From an uncultured Clostridia bacterium (GTDB lineage Bacteria; Acidobacteriota; Aminicenantia; UBA2199): 64,000 nt of DNA. The DNA is taken from positions 2,917 to 66,916 of the forward strand of contig CAYZNT010000014.1 of NCBI GenBank assembly GCA_964479735.1, read 5' to 3'. The position numbers and the translations under genes were made by a program. Position 1 is the stretch's first letter; each line of letters starts with the position of its first letter. Positions 3,681 through 37,898 of this stretch are shown here, in pieces. A model generated the notes under the pieces. The model had not been told where the DNA came from. It worked only from the letters and a program-made list of their open reading frames with translations, and made no database searches.

Positions 3681-5014
3681 CGTTCCACCGGCACCACGGC
3701 CACGGTCACCCACTTGCGGCCGGCGAAGCACGTCCCGCCCACGCGGCGCAGGTCGGCGGAGCGCACCGCCTCCAGGCTGTCGTCCCGGCTGTCGGCTCTG
3801 TCGTCGCCGAGCAGCAGGAACCGGGCGGCGGCCGAGCTGAGGTTGAGGGCCGACTCGCCATAACTGCCCCCCTCCATGGCCATCTGCCGGCGGGCGGAAT
3901 CCAGCAGGTCGAACGCCTGCGCCTGGTAGGCCGGCGGGAAGTCGAGGCGGCTGAAGTTGAGCTGGCGGATGCCGGACAGGAAACGCGCCAGCCTTCCCTG
4001 CACGTTGCGCACCTGGCGCGCCGGCAGCAGCAGGTGCAGCAGCATGGCGCCGCCGTGGCGCATGGGCAGGTAGCGCATCTCCAGGCGGTCGACCTCCTCG
4101 AAGGGGCCGCGCAATGCGCCCGCCAGCAGCGGGTTGAGGCCGCGGCCGAGAATGAAGGCCAGAACCCCGAGAGCCGCCCGGTCCGGGTCGTTGTAGCCGC
4201 CGACCGGCCAGGCGACGAACAGGTGGGCCTGGCGGACGTCGAGCCGGATCTCGGCCGACTGGCTTTTCGTCAATGCCGGAGGCGGCGGCAGCGGGGCGGC
4301 GGCGGGCTCCGCCCGGCCGCCTTCCCAGGTGCGCCGGATTTCCGCCTCCATGTCGGCGGCGGCGAAGTCGCCCACCAGCGCCAGCGAACAGCGGGCCGGC
4401 ACCAGCAGGCGGCGGTGCAGCTCCTCCATCTCGGCCAGGGTGGCGGCGGCGATCGCCTGCGGGTCGCCCTCGATCGGGCGGCCGTAGGGATGGGAGCCGA
4501 ACAGCAGCTGCAGCGCCCGCAGCCTGCCGGCGGTGGCGGGCTCGTCGCGCAGCTGGGCGATCTCCTCGGCGAGGATGCGCTTCTCGGCCTCCAGGTGCTC
4601 CGCCTGCAGGCGCGGAAGGAAAACCTGCTCGCGCAGTCGGGCCAGCGCCCAGGCGGCGTGGGCGGCGGGGGCGCTGTACTCGAAGGTGATCAAATCGACG
4701 TCGGTGTGGGCGTTGGCCTGGACGCCGCGCGCGCGAAGCCGGGCCAGGCGCTCCGGCCCGGTCGCCTCGCGGGTGGCTCCGAAGAGCAGCAGGTGCTCCA
4801 GCAGGTGCGGCCAGCCCGCCGGCGCGGCGGCGGCGGGGGAGAGGTCCGCCGCCAGGGTCATGGCGCAGAGCGGCAGGTCGCGCTTCTCCTGCAGGATGAC
4901 CCGCAGCCCGTTGTCGAGGGTGAAGCGACGGAACCCCGTCTCCCCATCCGCGATGGCGGCCAGGGAGAGGGAGAACAGCGCACCGGCGATCAGGCCCCGC
5001 TGGCTGGCGATCAT
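3677..5014 (-). CDS. M16 family zinc metallopeptidase (pitrilysin/insulinase-like), active subunit
   Basis: 445 aa with an N-terminal signal-like region and the inverted zinc-binding motif HLLEH (HxxEH). It is translationally coupled to the downstream M16 paralog. Confidence 0.8.
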   Translation of the reverse strand: MIASQRGLIAGALFSLSLAAIADGETGFRRFTLDNGLRVILQEKRDLPLCAMTLAADLSPAAAAPAGWPHLLEHLLLFGATREATGPERLARLRARGVQANAHTDVDLITFEYSAPAAHAAWALARLREQVFLPRLQAEHLEAEKRILAEEIAQLRDEPATAGRLRALQLLFGSHPYGRPIEGDPQAIAAATLAEMEELHRRLLVPARCSLALVGDFAAADMEAEIRRTWEGGRAEPAAAPLPPPPALTKSQSAEIRLDVRQAHLFVAWPVGGYNDPDRAALGVLAFILGRGLNPLLAGALRGPFEEVDRLEMRYLPMRHGGAMLLHLLLPARQVRNVQGRLARFLSGIRQLNFSRLDFPPAYQAQAFDLLDSARRQMAMEGGSYGESALNLSSAAARFLLLGDDRADSRDDSLEAVRSADLRRVGGTCFAGRKWVTVAVVPVER

Positions 5015-5151: not shown

Positions 5152-6711
5152 ATGCAGACCTGGAAACGCATATCGCTGATCCTGGCATTGGCCGTCGCCT
5201 TAGCGCCCCTGTGGGCCGGCGGCGCGCCGTCCGATCCCCAGCCGCTGGCCAGCCTGCTGGTCGGTCCCTACGGCATCGACTGGCTGCCGAAGGTCAGCGC
5301 CGGCTCGTTCACCCTGAGAGTCGCCGGCCCCACCGGCGTCTTCCTGGCCAAGACCTTCCCCGGCGGCAAGACCCCGCGCTTCGAGGTTTCGGACCTCGCC
5401 GGCTCCTGCCCGGACGGCATCTACACCTGGGAGTTGCGGGCCAGCCCTCAGGGTGCGCCCGCGGTCCGCGGTGACGAGACGGGCGTGCCACCCGCGGGGG
5501 CCCCGGAAGCCCTCTCCCAGTCCGGCCACTTCCGCGTCTTGGGCGGCTCGATCCTGGTCCCGGCGGCCAAGGAGCCGCGGCTGGCCGGACCGCTGGACGT
5601 GGTGCACGCCGACGACGTGATCGTCACCGGGTCGCTCTGCATCGGCTACGACTGCGCCACGGACGGATCGGAGGATTTCGGCTTCGACACCATCAAGATG
5701 AAGGAAAACAACCTCCAGATCTTCTTCGACGACACCTCGACGACCGCCGGCTTCCCGGCCAACGACTGGCGCCTCATCGCCAACGACTCCGCCAGCGGCG
5801 GCGGCAACTACTTCTCGATCGCAGACGCGACCAACTCCAGGGTGCCGTTCAAGATCGAGGCCGGCGCCCCCACCAGCGCCCTCTACGTCGACGACTCCGG
5901 CCGGGTCGGCCTGGGCACCGCCACTCCCGTTCTCGACCTGCACATCCTCTCCGGCAATACCCCCTCCATCCGCCTCGACCAGGACACGACGTCCGGCTGG
6001 ACGGCCCAGGTTTGGGACATCGCTGCCAACGAGTCCAATTTCTTTTTACGCGACACCACCGGCGGCTCGAAACTGCCCTTCCGCATCCAGCCCGGGGCTC
6101 CCACCAACACGCTGACGATGAAGTCGACCGGCTACGTGGGCATCGGCACCTGGTCGCCCGAGAGCCACCTGGAAATCGAGGCCACCGGCGCCAACGTCGT
6201 GCTGGCCGTCCAGCGCACGGACGGCGCCACCATGAAATTGAGCGCCATGGGCAGCTCGGGGCAGATCGGCACGGTCACCGAGCACGCCCTGAACTTCATG
6301 ACCAACAACGTCAAGCGGCTGTCGGTGGGCGCCTCGACGGGCAACGTCGGCATCGGCGTGACGTCCCCGACCTACCCCCTGCACATGGCCAGCGGCGCCT
6401 ATTGTTCGGCCGGCGGGGCGTGGACCAATGCCTCGAGCATCGCCTTCAAGCAGAACGTCCAGGCCCTGGGGCTGGCGGATGCGCGCCGGGCGCTGGCCGA
6501 CCTGCGTCCGGTGTCGTTCGCCTACAAGGCGGACCCCGGCGAGGAGCACCTGGGGTTCATCGCCGAGGAGGTGCCGGAACTGGTGGCCACGGGTGACCGC
6601 CAGGGCCTGAGCCCGATGGACATCGTGGCGGTGCTGACCCGGGTGGTGCAGGAACAGCAGAAGACCATCGCCGAGCTGCGCGAACGCGTGGAGCAGCTGG
6701 AAAAGCGGTAA
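5152..6711 (+). CDS. secreted fibre-like protein with a C-terminal intramolecular chaperone (peptidase S74 / tail-fibre ICD) domain, paralog 1
   Basis: An RBS (aaggagg) precedes the ATG at 5152, and the signal peptide is MQTWKRISLILALAVALAPLWAGGA. The C-terminus matches the endosialidase/tail-fibre chaperone domain (SSIAFKQNVQAL...LRPVSFAYK...HLGFIAEEVPELV...MDIVAVLTRVVQEQQKTIAELRERVEQLE). The middle has two ~80-aa beta-rich internal repeats (FDDTS..ANDW..GAPT..VGLGT). Confidence 0.7.
   Translation: MQTWKRISLILALAVALAPLWAGGAPSDPQPLASLLVGPYGIDWLPKVSAGSFTLRVAGPTGVFLAKTFPGGKTPRFEVSDLAGSCPDGIYTWELRASPQGAPAVRGDETGVPPAGAPEALSQSGHFRVLGGSILVPAAKEPRLAGPLDVVHADDVIVTGSLCIGYDCATDGSEDFGFDTIKMKENNLQIFFDDTSTTAGFPANDWRLIANDSASGGGNYFSIADATNSRVPFKIEAGAPTSALYVDDSGRVGLGTATPVLDLHILSGNTPSIRLDQDTTSGWTAQVWDIAANESNFFLRDTTGGSKLPFRIQPGAPTNTLTMKSTGYVGIGTWSPESHLEIEATGANVVLAVQRTDGATMKLSAMGSSGQIGTVTEHALNFMTNNVKRLSVGASTGNVGIGVTSPTYPLHMASGAYCSAGGAWTNASSIAFKQNVQALGLADARRALADLRPVSFAYKADPGEEHLGFIAEEVPELVATGDRQGLSPMDIVAVLTRVVQEQQKTIAELRERVEQLEKR
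6211..6674 (+). repeat. 464-bp perfect direct repeat, copy 1 (3' end of fibre paralog 1)
   Basis: I found no mismatches against 7917-8380 (offset 1706 bp) by direct comparison. The ORF track shows identical sub-ORFs 6428..6610 / 8134..8316 and 6132..6353 / 7838..8059. Confidence 0.85.
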
Positions 6712-6866: not shown

Positions 6867-8447
6867 ATGAAAACGTGGATCGGGTTGATTTTGGTTTGCA
6901 TCCTGCTTCTCGCCTCAGCGAATGGCCTGGCCGCCGCCGACCGTAACCCGGTGGCAGGATCCCTGGTCGGCCCGTATGGAATCGACTGGCTGCCCAAGGT
7001 CGGATACGGGGCGTTGCGCCTGACCGTTTCCGGTCCGCAGGGGGTCTTCCTGACAAAGAGTTTCCCGGGCGGCAAGACCCCGCGCTTCGAACTCAGCGAG
7101 ATCAAGGAGGGATGCCCGGACGGCATCTATACGTACGAACTGCGGGTGCAGGCTGCTGCGCGCCCGGAAAACCGCGATGGAACGCCCGATGCGTCCATCG
7201 CCGATACCCAGCGTCCGCTCATTCAGTCCGGCCATTTCCGCATCCGCGGCGGAGCGATCGTCGTCGCTTCCGGGGTGGAGGCCGGTACCGCGCCGCGCGA
7301 CGGCATCCTGGCCACCTACAACGAGGACTTGTACGTCAAGGGTTCTCTTTGCGTCGGCACCGACTGCGCCGATCCGGAGACATGGAACTACGACGTGATC
7401 CGGATGAAGGAGAACAACCTGCGCATCCATTTCGACGACACCAGCAGCACATCCTCGTTCCCGGCCAACGACTGGCGCATCGTCCTCAACGACTCCTCAG
7501 ACGGCGGCGGCAACTATTTCGCCGTGGAGGATTCGACGTCCGGGGACGTGCCGTTCACGATCGAGGCCGGCGCCCCCGCGAACTCGCTCTTCGTGGAAGA
7601 CTATGGCCGCATCGGCCTGAAGACCTCGACCCCGGCGGTCGAGCTGCACATGGTCGACGGCGACTCGCCGGCTGTGCGCCTGGACCAGGACACCACCTCG
7701 GGCTGGACGGCGCAGGCGTGGGACCTCGTCGGCAACGAAAGCAACTTCTTCGTGCGGGACGTCACCAACTCAGCCAGAATCCCTTTCCGCATCCAGCCGG
7801 GGACGCCTTCGAGCACCCTGAGCCTCAAGTCCTCGGGCTACGTGGGCATCGGCACCTGGTCGCCGGAATACAACCTGGAGGTCGAAGGCACGTCTGCCAA
7901 CGTCACCCTGGGCGTGCAGCGCACGGACGGCGCCACCATGAAATTGAGCGCCATGGGCAGCTCGGGGCAGATCGGCACGGTCACCGAGCACGCCCTGAAC
8001 TTCATGACCAACAACGTCAAGCGGCTGTCGGTGGGCGCCTCGACGGGCAACGTCGGCATCGGCGTGACGTCCCCGACCTACCCCCTGCACATGGCCAGCG
8101 GCGCCTATTGTTCGGCCGGCGGGGCGTGGACCAATGCCTCGAGCATCGCCTTCAAGCAGAACGTCCAGGCCCTGGGGCTGGCGGATGCGCGCCGGGCGCT
8201 GGCCGACCTGCGTCCGGTGTCGTTCGCCTACAAGGCGGACCCCGGCGAGGAGCACCTGGGGTTCATCGCCGAGGAGGTGCCGGAACTGGTGGCCACGGGT
8301 GACCGCCAGGGCCTGAGCCCGATGGACATCGTGGCGGTGCTGACCCGGGTGGTGCAGGAACAGCAGAAGACCATCGCCGATCAGCGCCGGGAGCTGGCCG
8401 AACTCGGCCGGCGCGTGGCCGAACTGGAGAGCAGGGAGACGCGGTAG
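6867..8447 (+). CDS. secreted fibre-like protein with a C-terminal intramolecular chaperone (peptidase S74 / tail-fibre ICD) domain, paralog 2
   Basis: An RBS (aggagg) precedes the ATG, and the signal peptide is MKTWIGLILVCILLLASANGLAAA. It shares domain order with 5152..6711 (conserved N-terminal domain VGPYGIDWLPKV...FPGGKTPRFE...CPDGIYT.ELR, two internal repeats). The C-terminal ICD is nucleotide-identical to paralog 1 over 464 bp, then diverges in the last ~20 codons. Confidence 0.7.
   Translation: MKTWIGLILVCILLLASANGLAAADRNPVAGSLVGPYGIDWLPKVGYGALRLTVSGPQGVFLTKSFPGGKTPRFELSEIKEGCPDGIYTYELRVQAAARPENRDGTPDASIADTQRPLIQSGHFRIRGGAIVVASGVEAGTAPRDGILATYNEDLYVKGSLCVGTDCADPETWNYDVIRMKENNLRIHFDDTSSTSSFPANDWRIVLNDSSDGGGNYFAVEDSTSGDVPFTIEAGAPANSLFVEDYGRIGLKTSTPAVELHMVDGDSPAVRLDQDTTSGWTAQAWDLVGNESNFFVRDVTNSARIPFRIQPGTPSSTLSLKSSGYVGIGTWSPEYNLEVEGTSANVTLGVQRTDGATMKLSAMGSSGQIGTVTEHALNFMTNNVKRLSVGASTGNVGIGVTSPTYPLHMASGAYCSAGGAWTNASSIAFKQNVQALGLADARRALADLRPVSFAYKADPGEEHLGFIAEEVPELVATGDRQGLSPMDIVAVLTRVVQEQQKTIADQRRELAELGRRVAELESRETR
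7917..8380 (+). repeat. 464-bp perfect direct repeat, copy 2 (3' end of fibre paralog 2)
   Basis: Identity begins at cagcgcacggacggcgcc and ends at aagaccatcgccga. The flanks on both sides diverge. Confidence 0.85.
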
Positions 8448-8475: not shown

Positions 8476-10290
8476 TTGGCGGACGATCGGGACGCGGAAG
8501 TGGCGGAGAGGCAGGTGCCCGGCATATCCGGAAGGGGGCTGGACGGCAGGGGAGTCCGTCGGGCGCTTCCCCTGATGTTGGTGCTGCTGGCCGCCGCCTG
8601 CGCCCGCCCCTCCCTGCGCCAGGCGGAGACCTGGCGCGCCGGCCACGACTACGACAAGGCGCTGGCGCGCTACCTGAAGGCGCTGCGTGAAAGGCCCCAG
8701 GACATCCAGCTGAAGCTGGCCGTGGACGGCCTGCTGAAGGAGGCCGCCGCCTGGTACGGGGCCCGCGCCGCCCAGCTGGAGCAGGAGGGCCATGCCGCCC
8801 TCGCGCTCCAGCTCTACCGCAAGGCGCTGGAGTACGATCCCGGCGACCGTCGCACCCGACAGAGGCTGCAGGAGCTGCAGCGGCCGGGGGAAGGGGTCGA
8901 GACCATCGAGAGCCAGGCGCACGGGGCCGAGCTGGCGGTGAGCGTGCCGCCGTCCCTGGCCAGCCCGGAGCGGATCGACGTGGACTTCCGCCACAAGACC
9001 GGGTTGCTGGCCATCCTGCGCGTGCTGGCCCAGAGCGGCGGGGTCAACCTTCTGTTCGACCCGGATCTGGCCGACAAGCCGGTGGCGGTCACCCTGCGCC
9101 AGGTCACCCTGCGCGAGGCGCTGGACCGGATCTGCCAGATCTCCGAGAGCCGCTACTTCGTGCTGGACGGGCGCAACATCCTGGTGGCGCCGGACACCGA
9201 GAGCGCCCGGTCCCGCTACCAGGAGCTGGTCGTCAAGAACATCTACTTCTCCAACGTCGAGGCCGACGAGGCCAAGCGCATCATGGAGCAGGCCGCCCGG
9301 CTCCAGCGGCTGATCGTCAACAAGCCGAGCAACTCGCTCATCGTCGCCGATTCCGCCGAGAACGTCGTCCTGGCCGAAAGGCTCGCCCGCTTCATCGACA
9401 AGCGCAAGGGCGAGGTGGAGATCGACGTCGAGATCATGGAGGTGGACCGCAAGCGGCTGAAGCAGTACGGCACCGAGCTGTCGTCGTGGAGCGTCGGCGC
9501 CGCCCTGAGCGGAAGCGGGGGCGGCCTCTCCGCGGACGCGCTCCGGGCGGTCGACCTGTCGGCCGACGTCCTGCTGTCGGTGCCGCAGGCGGTCTGGCGC
9601 TTCATGGCCACCGTCACCGATTCGAAGATCCTGGCCCAGCCCAAGGTGCGCGGCATGGACAAGGAGCGGGTGGAGATCCAGCTCGGCGAAAAGCGCCCCA
9701 TCCCGACCACCACGTTCGTTCCCCTCTCCCAGGGCAGCCTCAACCAGCAGCCGATCACCTCCTACAGCATGACCGACGTCGGCATCACCCTGAACATCAC
9801 CCCGACCATCCATCTCAACGAGGAGGTGACCCTCGAGCTGGTGTTCAGCCTGACCTACGTCATCGACATCGGCAGCGCGACCCTGCCGCCGACGCTGGGC
9901 AACCGCCGGGTGACCACCCGGCTGCGCCTGCGCACCGGCGAGACGGGCATCATCGCCGGCTTGATGCGCGGCTCCACCACCACCTCGCGCACCGGCGTGC
10001 CGCTGCTCAACGACATCCCCCTGCTGCGCGACCTCTTCTCGTCCAACCGGCGCGAGCACGAGCGCACCGACATCCTGCTGAGCATCACCCCCCGCATCCT
10101 GCGCATGCCCGAGATCACCCGTGGCGACCTCGAGCCCCATTTCATCGGCACCGAGGCCCGGCCCGGGCTGCAGCGCGCCCGGGAGGCCCCCCCGGCCCCG
10201 CCTCCCCCCGCCCCGGCCCCGGTGAAGAAGGGGAAACCCGGGCGCAAGAAGGCGAACCCGGACGCGGCCCAGGCGGCTCCGCCGGGGTGA
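8476..10290 (+). CDS. secretin family outer-membrane channel lipoprotein (PilQ/GspD-like) with an N-terminal TPR region
   Basis: A possible TTG start at 8476 follows a gggagg RBS; the alternative ATG is at 8575. A lipobox-like LLAAAC is present. It has TPR-like helices (YDKALARYLKALRER, LALQLYRKALEYDP), an N0/STN-like domain (IDVDFRHKTGLLAILRVLAQSGGVNLLFDP), a Secretin_N domain (SLIVADSAENVVLAERLARFIDKRKGEVEIDVEIMEV) and the secretin C-domain (VPLLNDIPLLRDLFSS...ILLSITPRIL). It starts 28 nt after fibre paralog 2. Confidence 0.75.
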   Translation: MADDRDAEVAERQVPGISGRGLDGRGVRRALPLMLVLLAAACARPSLRQAETWRAGHDYDKALARYLKALRERPQDIQLKLAVDGLLKEAAAWYGARAAQLEQEGHAALALQLYRKALEYDPGDRRTRQRLQELQRPGEGVETIESQAHGAELAVSVPPSLASPERIDVDFRHKTGLLAILRVLAQSGGVNLLFDPDLADKPVAVTLRQVTLREALDRICQISESRYFVLDGRNILVAPDTESARSRYQELVVKNIYFSNVEADEAKRIMEQAARLQRLIVNKPSNSLIVADSAENVVLAERLARFIDKRKGEVEIDVEIMEVDRKRLKQYGTELSSWSVGAALSGSGGGLSADALRAVDLSADVLLSVPQAVWRFMATVTDSKILAQPKVRGMDKERVEIQLGEKRPIPTTTFVPLSQGSLNQQPITSYSMTDVGITLNITPTIHLNEEVTLELVFSLTYVIDIGSATLPPTLGNRRVTTRLRLRTGETGIIAGLMRGSTTTSRTGVPLLNDIPLLRDLFSSNRREHERTDILLSITPRILRMPEITRGDLEPHFIGTEARPGLQRAREAPPAPPPPAPAPVKKGKPGRKKANPDAAQAAPPG

Positions 10291-10351
10291 GCCCGCGGCG
10301 TTGACCGGGCCCGGTTTTTCTGTTACAACGGCGCCGACAGGAGGTGTCCGA

Positions 10352-11143
10352 ATGAAGATGCCGCTGTTCCAGGTCGATGCCTTCACCGAAAATCCGTTTC
10401 AGGGAAACCCCGCCGCCGTCTGTCTGCCGCCGAAGCCCTTGCCGGACGAGACGCTGCAGAAGATCGCCGCCGAGATGAACCTTTCCGAAACGGCGTTCCT
10501 GTGGCCAACCGCCGACGGCTGGCACCTGCGCTGGTTCACCCCGCGGGTGGAGGTCGACCTGTGCGGCCATGCCACCCTGGCCAGCGCGACCGTCCTGTAC
10601 GAGCGGGGGCTGCTGGAGAAGACGAGCGTGGCGCGATTCCAGACGCGCAGCGGCCTGCTGAGCGCGGCCTGGCGCAAGGGCTGGATCGAGCTGGACTTCC
10701 CCCGCCGCGAGGTGTCGGTGATGAGGATCCCGCAGCGGATCGTGCGCGCGGTGGGCGTGGCGCCGCTGGCCACCGGCGTATCCGGCGACAATTTCCTCAT
10801 CGAGACCACCAGCCAGGAGGAGGTCGCCCGGGCCCGGCCCGATTTCGTTTCCCTGGCCCGCCTCACCGATCACGGCGTGATCCTCACCAGCCACTACGCG
10901 GCCCCGGAATACGATTTCGTGTCCCGTTTCTTCGCCCCGGCCATCGGCATCAACGAGGACCCGGTGACCGGTTCGGCCCACTGCAGCCTGGCCCCCTATT
11001 GGGCCAAGCGCCTCGGCAAGAGCGAGATGACCGCCTACCAGTCTTCGGCCCGCGGGGGGGTGCTGCGGCTCCGGCTGGAGGCCGAGCGGGTCGCCATATC
11101 CGGCCGGGCGGTGCTGGTCTTCTCCGGCGAGTTGACGGTGTAA
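10352..11143 (+). CDS. PhzF family phenazine-biosynthesis-like isomerase
   Basis: The ATG at 10352 follows a caggagg RBS. The N-terminus MKMPLFQVDAFTENPFQGNPAAV is typical of PhzF, and the protein is ~263 aa. Confidence 0.8.
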   Translation: MKMPLFQVDAFTENPFQGNPAAVCLPPKPLPDETLQKIAAEMNLSETAFLWPTADGWHLRWFTPRVEVDLCGHATLASATVLYERGLLEKTSVARFQTRSGLLSAAWRKGWIELDFPRREVSVMRIPQRIVRAVGVAPLATGVSGDNFLIETTSQEEVARARPDFVSLARLTDHGVILTSHYAAPEYDFVSRFFAPAIGINEDPVTGSAHCSLAPYWAKRLGKSEMTAYQSSARGGVLRLRLEAERVAISGRAVLVFSGELTV

Positions 11144-11315
11144 GCCCGTCGGCCCGGGGTCCACCGGGCGACGAGCCGTCCGGAGCTCGGCCGGACGGCG
11201 CCTGGGCACGTGTTCCCGGCCATTTCCGCCGGCAGGGCATGGCCGGGCGACGAGCCCCCCGCGGCCGCGAGGGACGCATGTTGACAATACTTCCCGCATC
11301 GGCTAGCCTGCCGCC

Positions 11316-12167
11316 ATGAGACAGGCGCGTTACACCTACCCCGGCGCGTTCCACCACGTGATCAGCCGCGGGTGCGGCGACGTGTTCGCGGTTGCCGCGG
11401 ACCGGCGTGTTTTTCTCGCGATCCTCGGCGAGCGGGTGCGCCTGATGCGCATCCGGCTGGCGGCCTGGTCCCTGGCGAGCGACGGCTACGAGCTGGTGCT
11501 GGAGAACAGCGCCGGCCGCATGAGCGAGTTCCTGAAAGGGCTGAACGCCGCCTTCGCCATCCGCTACCGCGCCCGCCATGGAGGCGGAGGGCGGGTGTTC
11601 CGGGACCGCTTCTCCTCCGTCCTGATCCAGGACGAGCCGCACCTGCGCCTGGCCATCCTGCATGTCGCGCAGCGGGCGCCGCGGCGCCTTCCCACCGCCG
11701 CCTCCTGGTCGAGCCTCGCCGAGTTCCTGTCCGAAAAGGGGCCGGGCGTGACCGACGTGCCGTTCGTCAGCGCCCTGTGGGGGGGAAGAGAGAACCTGCG
11801 CAGGGCGCTGACCGCCCCGGCGGGCGCCGGGCTGCCTTCCTTTCCGACCACCTTCGGGCGCATCGCCGGCCACAAGGGCGCCCCGCCCGCCGCCCGCCTG
11901 GAACGGCGCGAAGCCCCGCCCGGATTCGCTTCGCGGGAGGCCGTGATGCGCCACTTCGCCGCCCGCCACGGGCTCGACGGCCCGCTGCCGCTGAAGACGC
12001 GTGCCGGCCGTCGCCTTCGCGCCGACCTGCTGCTCGAGCTCCGCGAAGAGTGCGGCCTGACCTACCGCGACATCGCCCGCCTGCCGGAGTTCGCCGACCT
12101 GAGCCCCGCCTCGCTGGGCAAGATCTACCAGGACGCGCGGCGGCGCCGGGGGGACCGCCGTGGATAG
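11316..12167 (+). CDS. RAYT-like (IS200/Y1-transposase-like) domain fused to a DnaA C-terminal HTH domain; probably a domesticated, non-catalytic transposase-like protein
   Basis: The N-terminus YTYPGAFHHVISRG resembles the REP-associated tyrosine transposase start. The expected HuH position reads GYELVLE, so the motif is degenerate. The C-terminus LREECGLTYRDIARL...SPASLGKIY is DnaA_C-like. GC-rich palindromes lie upstream. Confidence 0.55.
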   Translation: MRQARYTYPGAFHHVISRGCGDVFAVAADRRVFLAILGERVRLMRIRLAAWSLASDGYELVLENSAGRMSEFLKGLNAAFAIRYRARHGGGGRVFRDRFSSVLIQDEPHLRLAILHVAQRAPRRLPTAASWSSLAEFLSEKGPGVTDVPFVSALWGGRENLRRALTAPAGAGLPSFPTTFGRIAGHKGAPPAARLERREAPPGFASREAVMRHFAARHGLDGPLPLKTRAGRRLRADLLLELREECGLTYRDIARLPEFADLSPASLGKIYQDARRRRGDRRG

Positions 12168-12906
12168 CCCGGGACGGGTCGCTCCCCACGAGGAGGACTT
12201 CACCCTGGCCCCGGGCGCGCCCCCCTGGCTGGGCGTCATGGATCGCATGCAGGAGGCGGCCGGCCGCCATGCCGCCCGCCTCGGCGTCGGCCTGCCGCAG
12301 CTGGCGGCCAGGGGGATCACCTGGGTCCTGGTGCGCAACCATGTTCGATTCGCCCGCCCGCCGCGGCTTGACGAGCCGCTGCACCTCGCCACCTGGCCGA
12401 CCGGCCGGCGCGGCCTGCTGGCCGTGCGCGACTTCCGGCTCTGCGATGGCAGCGGGGAGGAGGTCCTGCGCGCCACCTCCGCCTGGCTGCTGATGCGGCT
12501 GGACACCCGCCGCCCGGTGCGCCTCGACCCGCACCTGCCCGACTACCTGGATCTTCCCGGCCCGGCGCTGGCGGACGATTTTGAGCCCCTGCCCGAGGCG
12601 GGTGGGGACACCGCCCCCGCCGTCGTGGTGCAGCCCGCCGACATCGACGTCAACGACCACGTCAACAACATCGTCTACCTGGAATGGGCGCTGCGGGCGG
12701 CGCCGTCGTTTACGACCGGCCGCTGCCCGGGGGAGCTGGAAGTGGCCTTTCTGGGGGAGGCGCGGCTGGGAGACGAGGTGCGCTGCCGCACGAGGTCGGA
12801 GGAGGGGGCGGGGGGGGCGCTCCTGCTGCAGAGCCTGGAGAACGGGGCCGGCCGGGAGCTGACGCGATTGCGCTCGTTCTGGCCGGCCCGGGGAAAAATC
12901 GTTTGA
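12160..12906 (+). CDS. acyl-ACP thioesterase family protein
   Basis: Hot-dog thioesterase motifs (ITWVLVRNHVRF, NDHVNNIVYLEW) consistent with Acyl-ACP_TE. It overlaps the preceding gene by 8 nt. Confidence 0.65.
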   Translation: MDSPGRVAPHEEDFTLAPGAPPWLGVMDRMQEAAGRHAARLGVGLPQLAARGITWVLVRNHVRFARPPRLDEPLHLATWPTGRRGLLAVRDFRLCDGSGEEVLRATSAWLLMRLDTRRPVRLDPHLPDYLDLPGPALADDFEPLPEAGGDTAPAVVVQPADIDVNDHVNNIVYLEWALRAAPSFTTGRCPGELEVAFLGEARLGDEVRCRTRSEEGAGGALLLQSLENGAGRELTRLRSFWPARGKIV

Positions 12907-25913: not shown

Positions 25914-25972
25914 TTGACAAGTGAAACGAACTGATGTATATTAGCGTACATAGAGTGACTGCCGGTCAGTCA
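25914..25972 (+). promoter_or_regulatory. consensus sigma70 promoter plus inverted-repeat operator upstream of the TetR-efflux operon
   Basis: TTGACA (25914-25919), 17-nt spacer, TATATT (25937-25942). Immediately downstream is the palindrome TGACTG-ccggt-CAGTCA (25956-25972). It sits in a locally A/T-rich island. Confidence 0.55.
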
Positions 25973-32433: not shown

Positions 32434-32619
32434 GTCCGCGGCACGCCCCGAGCGGGTGATCCGCGCCCCGCCGCTGGACAACCCGGGGCGGGGTATGGTA
32501 TGAAGGGAAGGCCTTCGAGCCGGAACGCGGCTACCGCGGCCTGCCGCCGCCACGCCCGCCGGCCGGCAGGGTGCGGCGGGAAACGGCCGCGCCTCTCCCG
32601 TGCGGAAAGGAGGTATTGC

Positions 32620-33456
32620 ATGACATGTTCGCGCCCGGTATCCGGGAAGCGCCGGCTGGCCGCCTGGGTTGCCGCCCTCCTGGTCATGGTCCCGCTGGCG
32701 GTCCAGGCCAAGGAGAAACTGGTGCTGGCCTCCACCACGTCGACCCTCGATTCGGGATTTTTCGACGCGGTGATCCCGGTGTTCGAGAAAAATTTCGATT
32801 GCCAGGTCAAGGTGATCGCCGTCGGCACCGGGCAGGCCATCCGCCTGGGCCGGGACGGCAACGCCGACGTGCTGCTGGTCCACGACCCGGTTGCCGAGAA
32901 GCTCTTCGTCGAGGACGGCTACGGGGAAGCGCGCCTGCCGGTGATGCACAACGATTTCCTGATCGTCGGCCCGGAAAGCGATCCGGCCGCCATCGCCGGG
33001 TTGAAGGCCGTCCCGGCGTTCCGGAAACTGGCGGCCGCCGGCGCCGTGTTCGTCAGTCGCGGCGACGCCTCGGGCACCCACAAGATGGAACTGCGGCTCT
33101 GGTCGCAGTCGGGAGGCCCGGGGAGCGGAAAAAGCTACCTGGAAAGCGGCAGCGGCATGGAGGCCACCCTGCGCATCGCCAGCGAAAAGATCGCCTACAC
33201 CCTGATCGACCGCGCGACCTGGCTGGCGCACCGCAGCGAGGTGCCGGGGCTGAACGCCCTGGTCGAAGGCGACGAGATGCTCTTCAACCCCTACGCGGTG
33301 ATCGTCGTATCGCCCCTGAAGCACCCCCACGTTCAGCACCGGCTGGCGGTAGCCTTCGCCGGTTTCCTGCGGGGCCCCGAGGGCCAGGCCCTCATCCGCG
33401 ACTTCGGCCGGGACCGGTACGGCCAGCCGCTTTTCTTTCCCGACGTGATCCGCTAG
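32620..33456 (+). CDS. tupA: tungstate ABC transporter substrate-binding protein
   Basis: The signal peptide is followed by the TupA signature ASTTSTLDSGF. An RBS (ggaaaggaggt) precedes the ATG. Confidence 0.8.
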   Translation: MTCSRPVSGKRRLAAWVAALLVMVPLAVQAKEKLVLASTTSTLDSGFFDAVIPVFEKNFDCQVKVIAVGTGQAIRLGRDGNADVLLVHDPVAEKLFVEDGYGEARLPVMHNDFLIVGPESDPAAIAGLKAVPAFRKLAAAGAVFVSRGDASGTHKMELRLWSQSGGPGSGKSYLESGSGMEATLRIASEKIAYTLIDRATWLAHRSEVPGLNALVEGDEMLFNPYAVIVVSPLKHPHVQHRLAVAFAGFLRGPEGQALIRDFGRDRYGQPLFFPDVIR

Positions 33457-37680: not shown

Positions 37681-37709
37681 AGAGGGCCCTATTTTATCGG
37701 ACTCCCCCG
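37681..37709 (-). promoter_or_regulatory. sigma70-type promoter for hppA (minus strand)
   Basis: The reverse complement reads TTGACA, 17-nt spacer, TAAAAT. An AGGAG RBS lies ~50 nt further on, before the hppA ATG. Confidence 0.5.
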
Positions 37710-37898
37710 GGTTTGTCAAATCAGGGCGTTGTCTCACGAATTGAGGCGGCGACGAGGAGGCGCCCGCCGAACCACCCGAGCCCGCGACGGACGCACGATG
37801 TCACCCCCATGCACTGGACCACCACGCGTTCATACTTTGCGCTCGCACGGCCATCGCTCTTTCACGGTGAGGCAATCAGGAGCAAGTGGGCGCCGGGG

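Follow-up and report, generated by a model that had tools for sequence, protein, structure and literature searches.

Genomic locus and family membership

We analyzed a 283-aa open reading frame (ORF) at 11316-12167 (+) in a 64,000-nt stretch of contig CAYZNT010000014.1 (positions 2,917 to 66,916; GenBank assembly GCA_964479735.1, from an uncultured Clostridia bacterium placed by GTDB in the Acidobacteriota). This whole 64-kb stretch is hereafter called the window, and coordinates count from its first letter. The ORF, whose protein begins MRQARYTYPGAFHHVISRG and which is present once in the window, very probably encodes an inactive derivative of a TIRYT-type Y1 transposase. It is preceded, across a 172-nt spacer, by a PhzF-family gene (10301-11143) and followed by an acyl-ACP thioesterase gene (12160-12906). 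An identical ORF protein is found in eight contigs of this organism, in the order secretin, PhzF, ORF, thioesterase, ACT-like, acetate kinase, radical SAM, and Hdr/Flx-like, while the genes of relatives are found in contexts unrelated to this neighbourhood. The features of the coding region are as follows:

11316..12167 (+): TIRYT-type Y1 (HUH) transposase derivative, very probably catalytically dead; full-length homology at 38-42% identity; host-like GC content at codon positions 1, 2, and 3 (GC1/2/3)
11316..11705 (+): Y1/HUH-fold domain, residues 1-130; Foldseek matches to 4er8 and ISDra2/IS608 TnpA, profile E=1.1e-5
11484..11492 (+): HuH relic G57-Y58-E59 (family H-Y/F-H); His columns pair with HMH of TnpA_REP
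11661..11678 (+): relic of the catalytic-Tyr helix, H116-V-A-Q-R120-A121 (family Y-x-L-x-N-P); aligns to YIYINP of TnpA_REP
11706..11714 (+): retained serine motif W131-S132-S133, 3' of the Tyr helix; invariant in A1, kept in A2
11928..12164 (+): putatively DNA-binding C-terminal domain, helical, its fold resembling DnaA domain IV, residues ~205-283
12160..12167 (+): ORF end (TAG at 12165-12167) overlapping the first 8 nt of the thioesterase gene (GTG start), where the right terminal repeat sits in relatives

The family of this protein emerged from relatives rather than from domain databases. Scans of the ORF protein against Pfam and NCBIfam returned zero matches even at E<=1, including for PF01797, the profile that the first-pass annotation had proposed as a check; PHROGs and PADLOC scans likewise returned zero matches, and phmmer against PDB sequences gave noise only. 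A word-indexed search of 5.8 billion proteins yielded just six relatives, five of which (P0002-P0006) are ~300-aa proteins from metagenome-assembled genomes with 38-42% identity and 85-98% coverage, each carrying PF01797 marginally over threshold. An exhaustive profile search extended this to 50,204 relatives at E<=1e-3, about 60 of them full-length with the same ~300-aa architecture, and single-protein scans of genome and metagenome contigs retrieved only distant relatives at 23-29% identity and no orthologue. Against NCBIfam NF047646 (RAYT, a tyrosine transposase associated with REPs, where REP denotes the repetitive extragenic palindrome; cutoff 80 bits), relatives score 41-76 bits, and the window protein has no match.

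A profile built from 61 full-length members matched Escherichia coli TnpA_REP (PDB 4er8_A) at E=1.1e-5, pairing family nHYHL with EHMHC at the HuH motif, ailYvLlNPvraG with vdYIYINPVKHG at the nucleophilic Tyr, and yKWSS with dWPFST. An AlphaFold2 (AF2) model, of moderate confidence in the Y1 domain (predicted local distance difference test, pLDDT, ~75-85), shows the beta-alpha-beta-beta-alpha-beta arrangement plus Tyr helix of HUH nucleases, and the best Foldseek matches of its N-terminal domain are 4er8, 2xm3, 2a6m, and 2vju (E 7e-5 to 1e-3), so that profile and fold both bear out the RAYT-like N-terminus that had been proposed for this protein.

With its Y1 HUH domain and C-terminal helix-turn-helix (HTH), the ORF protein belongs to the TIRYT/TIRtron group, that is, TnpA_REP subclass 2.1. 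The passages on this subclass in Quentin et al. 2018 (PMC6006769) describe C-terminal Bac_DnaA_C/HTH_23/HTH_28-like extensions, a serine motif beside the catalytic Tyr, and no REPs nearby; they treat the subclass as equivalent to what Di Nocera et al. 2013 call the TIRYT/TIRtron group and give it a RAYT group of Bertels et al. 2017, most likely group 1, as counterpart. Di Nocera et al. (2013; PMC3733652) describe TIRtrons as enclosed by terminal inverted repeats whose tip reads GGGGWSAS.

Loss of the active site

In a MAFFT alignment of 156 cluster representatives, the five hallmark columns of the family (two His, Tyr, Asn, and Pro) are each 90-96% conserved, and the window protein departs from the family at every one of them:

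Position 57: family His in 140/156 representatives; window G
Position 59: family His in 144/156 representatives; window E
Position 116: family Tyr in 145/156 representatives; window H
Position 120: family Asn in 140/156 representatives; window R
Position 121: family Pro in 149/156 representatives; window A

The first-pass annotation had read the string GYELVLE (residues 57-63) as a degenerate HuH motif with an altered Tyr context, and it had described the ORF, an upstream hairpin, paired 14-mers, and a promoter; all of these strings are present where it placed them, and alignment to TnpA_REP upholds the replacement of HuH and Tyr while adding that of Asn-Pro.

This loss is markedly concentrated. 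Pfam Y1_Tnp is matched by 60 of the 61 aligned full-length members, with the window protein as the single exception. Counting columns that are at least 75% conserved, the window protein keeps only 2 of 10 within the catalytic segments (family mean 9.0, lowest other member 5), as compared with 38 of 46 outside them (family mean 39.3), and the difference in loss between active site and elsewhere (8/10 vs. 8/46 columns) is significant (Fisher p=3e-4). Set against the active relative P0002, the window protein has moved away from the family core by a further 14 identity points in the Y1 domain, as against 5.5 in the HTH and 2 in the linker. A protein altered in this way would no longer be able to cut or join DNA.

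Catalytic loss is not confined to the window. Among 139 full-length representatives, 12 are without one or the other His or the Tyr, and most of these have active nearest neighbours, so several independent losses appear to have occurred in the family. According to Di Nocera et al. 2013 (PMC3733652), HuH and Tyr are conserved in all TIRYTs, and in the relevant passages of Quentin et al. (PMC6006769) members without HuH or Tyr motifs are regarded as probably non-functional. We also observed a HuH-defective clade made up of P0077, P0177 (L016 900-1808), P0178, and P0170, with motifs C-Y-C, H-Y-F, and H-Y-C, in which the first three proteins have diversified to 77-84% identity and P0170 is 54-56% identical to the others; this clade offers a better case than the window gene for testing selection on dead TIRYTs.

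Terminal inverted repeats in relatives and in the window

We compared nine loci, namely those of six catalytically intact relatives (L007, L008, L011, L015, L019, and L021), those of the defective L016 (C-Y-C) and L017 (E-F-Q), and the window. All six intact relatives carry terminal inverted repeats of 18-36 nt abutting the gene:

L007, 9953-9981 / 10908-10936: TTGGGGACGGTGCTTGACTTTGTGACTTT, 29 nt, 100% complementary
L008, 7996-8031 / 8958-8993: 36 nt, 89% complementary
L011, 2955-2985 / 3902-3932: 31 nt, 100% complementary
L015, 2880-2906 / 3918-3944: 27 nt, 93% complementary
L019 and L021: read in the flanking sequence; L019 ~29 nt with outer bases mismatched, the most divergent

Five of the six, in different hosts, share the core GGGGACGGTGCTTGAC with a few substitutions, as GGG(G/T)(A/C)CGG(T/G)G(C/G)TTGA(C/A), and L019 differs. 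The proteins of these repeat-bearing relatives are, where comparable, only ~33-57% identical to one another, and within P0002-P0006, P0003 and P0005 are known to be repeat-flanked. The inner part of the repeat consists of two direct TGAC(A/T)TT half-sites, the first of which doubles as the -35 of the gene's promoter, suggesting autoregulation by repeat binding.

At the defective loci this arrangement has gone. Terminal inverted repeats were not found in L016, the one locus read from the HuH-defective clade, or in L017, and an inverted-repeat search found no pair flanking the window ORF. The right repeat of relatives begins at the stop codon, where the window has its thioesterase start; an inverted-repeat search, alignment to the relatives' 3' flanks, and a weight-matrix scan found nothing convincing there. 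One candidate for a right-repeat remnant, GGGGAGCG on the minus strand at 12180-12187, was rejected as compatible with chance. Repeats therefore track activity across the nine loci, being present at the six intact ones and absent from the window, L016, and L017.

On the left side, the window preserves a probable relic, one of several features in the spacer upstream of the ORF:

11164..11197 (+): direct repeat copy 1, 14-mer CCGGGCGACGAGCC (11164-11177) followed by a GC palindrome
11175..11199 (+): perfect 9-bp hairpin GCCGTCCGG-AGCTCGG-CCGGACGGC with a 7-nt loop, 32 nt past the PhzF stop codon
11197..11210 (+): GGCGCCTGGGCACG, possible extra degenerate terminal-repeat tip, matching the L015 tip GGCGCCTGGGGACG
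11243..11276 (+): direct repeat copy 2, 14-mer CCGGGCGACGAGCC (11243-11256) then a GC palindrome of another sequence; runs at its end into the left-repeat relic
11270..11285 (+): probable left terminal inverted repeat relic AGGGACGCATGTTGAC (family GGGGACGGTGCTTGAC), in register with the L007 repeat relative to the ATG
11281..11309 (+): promoter-like site TTGACA (11281-11286), 17-nt spacer, TAGCCT (11304-11309), ending 6 nt before the ATG at 11316

With a weight matrix of the repeat tip plus the -35, the relic AGGGACGCATGTTGAC ranks 3rd of ~128,000 positions; its tip scored alone is not significant, nor are other upstream tip-like sites around 11191. L016, like the window, retains only a TTGAC-containing left remnant. 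Further upstream, GGCGCCTGGGCACG is the only match in the window with at most one mismatch to GGCGCCTGGGGACG, the reiterated tip of L015 (0.30 expected window-wide, in a post hoc comparison), and this suggests that the GC-rich upstream clutter is eroded repeat-tip debris.

Several side observations concern the surroundings of the intact elements. Partial copies of the repeat tip lie just outside three of them, in L015 as a tandem array of four GCGCCTGGGGACG-like copies (2833-2894), in L019 as three reiterations of the ATAAACTGCGA tip (~1420-1460), and in L011 as one extra right tip (3945-3961). Transposase genes or fragments also adjoin TIRtrons, namely an IS110-type Transposase_20 in L007 (10989-11639) and a DDE_Tnp_ISL3 in L019 (1119-1364), and these two loci may be collecting points for mobile elements.

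Promoter and leaderless start

The promoter-like site overlapping the left relic belongs to a class that is rare by chance, as the window has 3 TTGACA-N17-TANNNT sites where 0.01 would be expected. The same layout is found in L007, L008, L011, L019, and L021, in each of which the -35 lies in the left repeat, the spacer is 16-17 nt, and the -10 ends 6 nt before the ATG; L015 differs in having a ~100-nt leader with a Shine-Dalgarno sequence. In the window, an upstream start is excluded by the in-frame TAG at 11304-11306 within the -10, and, since no Shine-Dalgarno sequence was seen upstream of the ORF either, a leaderless mRNA is the best reading. The leaderless-type promoter that had been noticed in the initial annotation is, on our best reading, inherited from the left repeat of the element and shared with five relatives.

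The other two exact sites, at 25914-25942 (+) with TATATT and at 37691-37719 (-) with TAAAAT as -10, are probably real sigma-70 promoters. In relatives, we additionally observed that gene callers begin P0004, P0005, and P0006 15 residues late, at MNRG (in L008, called at 8096 with the true start at 8051), and that the conserved MRRARLTYPGAFHHV of these three proteins is encoded upstream, from a leaderless ATG without a ribosome-binding site. For annotation, this means that the window ORF is invisible to Pfam and NCBIfam, and that the leaderless starts of several relatives are missed by gene callers.

Upstream 14-mers and hairpin

The two 34-nt direct-repeat units are 74% identical, with their first 14 nt identical, and an exact 14-nt direct repeat within a 172-nt spacer arose in only 5 of 3000 Markov simulations (p about 0.002). 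The 14-mer CCGGGCGACGAGCC has no further exact copy in the window; allowing up to 2 mismatches, we found 11 matches vs. 5 expected, scattered and unrelated. The window holds 24 perfect hairpins with stems of at least 8 bp, within the 16-34 found in shuffles, and the stem of the 11175-11199 hairpin has no second hairpin-forming copy there. A search of the window for a dispersed short repeat family found none, the spacer has no Rfam match, and its folding is unexceptional (z=-1.5). The hairpin was also considered as a terminator and rejected, with no T-run after the stem and no call by the terminator scanner.

C-terminal domain

For the C-terminal ~80 aa, of which the first-pass annotation had likened ~70 to DnaA domain IV, fold and sequence methods gave different answers. 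A separate AF2 model of residues 200-283 (pLDDT 90.4) has DnaA domain IV as its best fold match, with template-modelling (TM) scores of 0.67-0.75 and Foldseek E-values that are not significant at such a small domain size; the predicted structure thus agrees both with a DnaA domain IV fold and with the Bac_DnaA_C/HTH_23/HTH_28-like C-terminal HTH of TIRYTs. PF08299, however, matched neither the window protein nor any of 61 full-length members or 43 C-terminal segments. Alignment by hhalign of the C-terminal alignment with E. coli DnaA domain IV gave a probability of 0.3%, a C-terminal profile returned nothing from PDB sequences, and Pfam found only weak HTH_23 and Sigma70_r4_2 matches in the C-terminal segments. 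With the sequence methods negative, the resemblance to DnaA domain IV that the first-pass annotation described stands at the level of fold only. DnaA-box specificity should not be assumed for the ORF protein; in the part of Quentin et al. (PMC6006769) that treats the repeat motif of the family, this motif differs from DnaA boxes.

Maintenance or decay of the reading frame

The ORF has a GC1/2/3 of 0.74/0.55/0.905, as compared with 0.65-0.79/0.47-0.53/0.88-0.96 in flanking host genes and a GC3 of 0.54-0.56 in the genes of relatives. The host-like GC3 indicates a residence long enough for the gene to acquire the composition of its host, with second positions still constrained; taken with losses restricted to the active site, it speaks for ongoing selection on a function other than catalysis.

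We lean towards the view that the ORF is a stranded, nuclease-dead TIRYT that has lived on as a DNA-binding protein whose site of action is probably its own promoter region; this promoter would also feed the translationally coupled downstream genes. In the proposed course of events, the ORF would descend from a TIRtron, a one-gene element between ~30-nt terminal inverted repeats, that became immobilised and catalytically dead. Both metal-binding His, the nucleophilic Tyr, and the adjacent Asn-Pro have been lost from the protein. The right repeat has disappeared, the stop codon now overlapping the thioesterase start, and the left repeat has been cut down to a probable relic retaining the family promoter, with the -35 in the repeat and the -10 six nt before the ATG. 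The protein would survive as a sequence-specific DNA-binding protein, a role we infer because its scaffold, serine motif, and HTH match those of active relatives in conservation and it has a fully host-like codon composition. Its likeliest targets would lie within its own promoter region, in the form of the repeat relics or the 14-mer repeats, and binding there would regulate its own transcript together with the translationally coupled downstream genes. A fuller version, in which exaptation has turned the dead transposase into a transcription factor that binds relics or paired 14-mers upstream of its leaderless promoter through its DnaA-IV-like domain, perhaps with a retained HUH surface, and controls both its own transcription and that of thioesterase, ACT, and acetate kinase, is speculative and in our judgement rather improbable.

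Several observations weigh against persistence as a DNA-binding protein. The second TGAC half-site is absent from the window relic, making binding to it uncertain, and outside the -35 hexamer the repeat-relic signal is weak or post hoc. The likeness to DnaA domain IV comes from predicted structure, with Pfam and hhalign negative. Protein and contig searches found no orthologues on which a ratio of nonsynonymous to synonymous substitution rates could be computed, and the eight same-organism contigs are 99.98-100% identical. An open frame is by itself weak evidence in a 69% GC genome, and in each domain the window protein is at a greater distance from the family core than are P0002 and P0013, which fits slow decay too.

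Some of these same points speak for the main competitor, a non-functional relic in slow decay whose frame remains open since stops are rare at high GC and time has been short, which we regard as possible though unlikely. No orthologues were found on which selection could be gauged, the protein is more diverged than P0002 or P0013 across all domains, both terminal repeats are lost or eroded, long spurious ORFs are abundant here on both strands, and Quentin et al. (PMC6006769), where they turn to motif-less members, regard them as probably non-functional. Neutral decay, however, would strike all conserved columns alike, and the losses are instead concentrated in the active site (8/10 vs. 8/46 columns); GC2 has been held at 0.55 at a GC3 of 0.905, so that amino-acid-constrained positions have withstood mutational bias; and the gene retains an intact promoter together with its natural start and its natural stop position. 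Continued activity with non-canonical residues, which the retained fold and the speculative capacity of Glu59 and His116 to bind metal might be taken to allow, seems to us extremely improbable, as all five hallmark residues including the nucleophile are replaced, no terminal repeat pair is left as substrate, and the gene is single-copy in the window. The HUH mechanism, as established for IS608 and TnpA_REP, requires two His and a Tyr nucleophile. The first-pass preference for a domesticated over an active protein accordingly holds in one half, an active transposase being very unlikely, and in the other half domestication is plausible rather than proven.

The first-pass annotation had also placed this RAYT-like gene among REP-like palindromes, taken as signs of a REP family and of a possible local hotspot. 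The perfect 9-bp GC hairpin and the two 14-mer copies, each followed by a palindrome, do lie just upstream, and classical RAYTs are flanked by REPs (PMC3733652), yet we consider this very improbable. The 14-mer is unique to the locus in 64 kb, with only scattered matches at up to 2 mismatches; no dispersed short repeat family was found in the window; hairpins of this class occur at chance frequency and do not share the stem; and the two palindromes differ in sequence, unlike REP copies. The ORF is thus not REP-flanked within the window, the six intact relatives bear terminal inverted repeats instead, and the sections of Quentin et al. (PMC6006769) on subclass 2.1 report no REPs beside its genes. 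The REP-like family fell away on these grounds, and the window gave no evidence of a hotspot.

Significance

Published work already covers the family together with its terminal repeats and DnaA-like extension, and motif-less members were noted earlier and dismissed as likely non-functional. What is new here is that the losses are confined to the active site, that catalytic loss and repeat loss are paired (3 defective vs. 6 intact loci), and that the promoter lies within the repeat in a leaderless layout. Transposases domesticated into DNA-binding regulators are well known from eukaryotes and far less so from bacteria, where examples include the RAYTs themselves and nuclease-dead TnpB derivatives acting as repressors. 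If binding and regulation by the ORF protein were shown, the locus would provide a tractable bacterial case of a transposase turned regulator with a promoter donated to a host operon; if they were not borne out, it would be an ordinary stranded element. Were the fuller version involving exaptation as a transcription factor true, TIRtrons would be a recurrent source of bacterial DNA-binding regulators, with catalysis lost several times and the HTH kept. Until now, inactive Y1 proteins were put down as likely pseudogenes, as in the remarks of Quentin et al. (PMC6006769) on such members.

Other observations in the window

The neighbourhood downstream of the ORF recurs in a related species, where the contig of P0184 (JGI 3300075153) conserves the thioesterase-ACT-ackA neighbourhood, with AckA 80% identical. 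The order there is a 199-aa partial gene, 4 nt, thioesterase, a CMAS-type methyltransferase (430 aa), ACT, and ackA. Named matches to the acetate kinase of the window come from Thermoanaerobaculaceae and Spirochaetes MAGs, at 57-67% identity. Upstream of the secretin gene, two ~900-nt stretches of the window (5231-6141 and 6937-7847) are 72-73% identical at an offset of 1706 nt and are most likely tandem paralogous genes. A Molybdenum/tungsten cofactor (Moco) riboswitch at 32501-32628 (+), scoring 49.7 bits against a gathering score of 36, is the sole Rfam family over threshold in the window, and a search of the window for tRNA genes found none.

Comparison with known systems

Among known systems, DnaA domain IV (PDB 1j1v, 3pvp, 8btg, and 1l8q; PF08299) shares its fold with the C-terminal domain, although a Pfam-level sequence match is absent and the DHTTV signature is not evident in the window protein, which has SPASL there. 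The IS200/IS605 TnpA transposases (IS608, ISDra2) have the same HUH fold (TM ~0.6-0.68 normalised to target); sequence similarity to them is weak, the window protein is longer and inactive, and the window has neither subterminal hairpin ends nor a tnpB partner. Closer is the RAYT TnpA_REP of E. coli (4er8), the top Foldseek match, with a homologous core and aligned HuH, Tyr-x3-N-P, and W/F-S motifs, from which the window differs in having no REP family around the gene in 64 kb, in the loss of catalytic residues, and in an extra ~150-aa linker and HTH domain. Closest is the TIRYT/TIRtron group (Di Nocera 2013; subclass 2.1): although HuH, Tyr, and Asn-Pro are replaced in the window, the terminal repeat pair is reduced to a left relic, and the 3' end overlaps a host gene, the two share full-length homology, the Y1 fold, the WSS motif, a C-terminal HTH, the same -35/-10 layout 6 nt before the ATG, and occurrence as one copy in the window.

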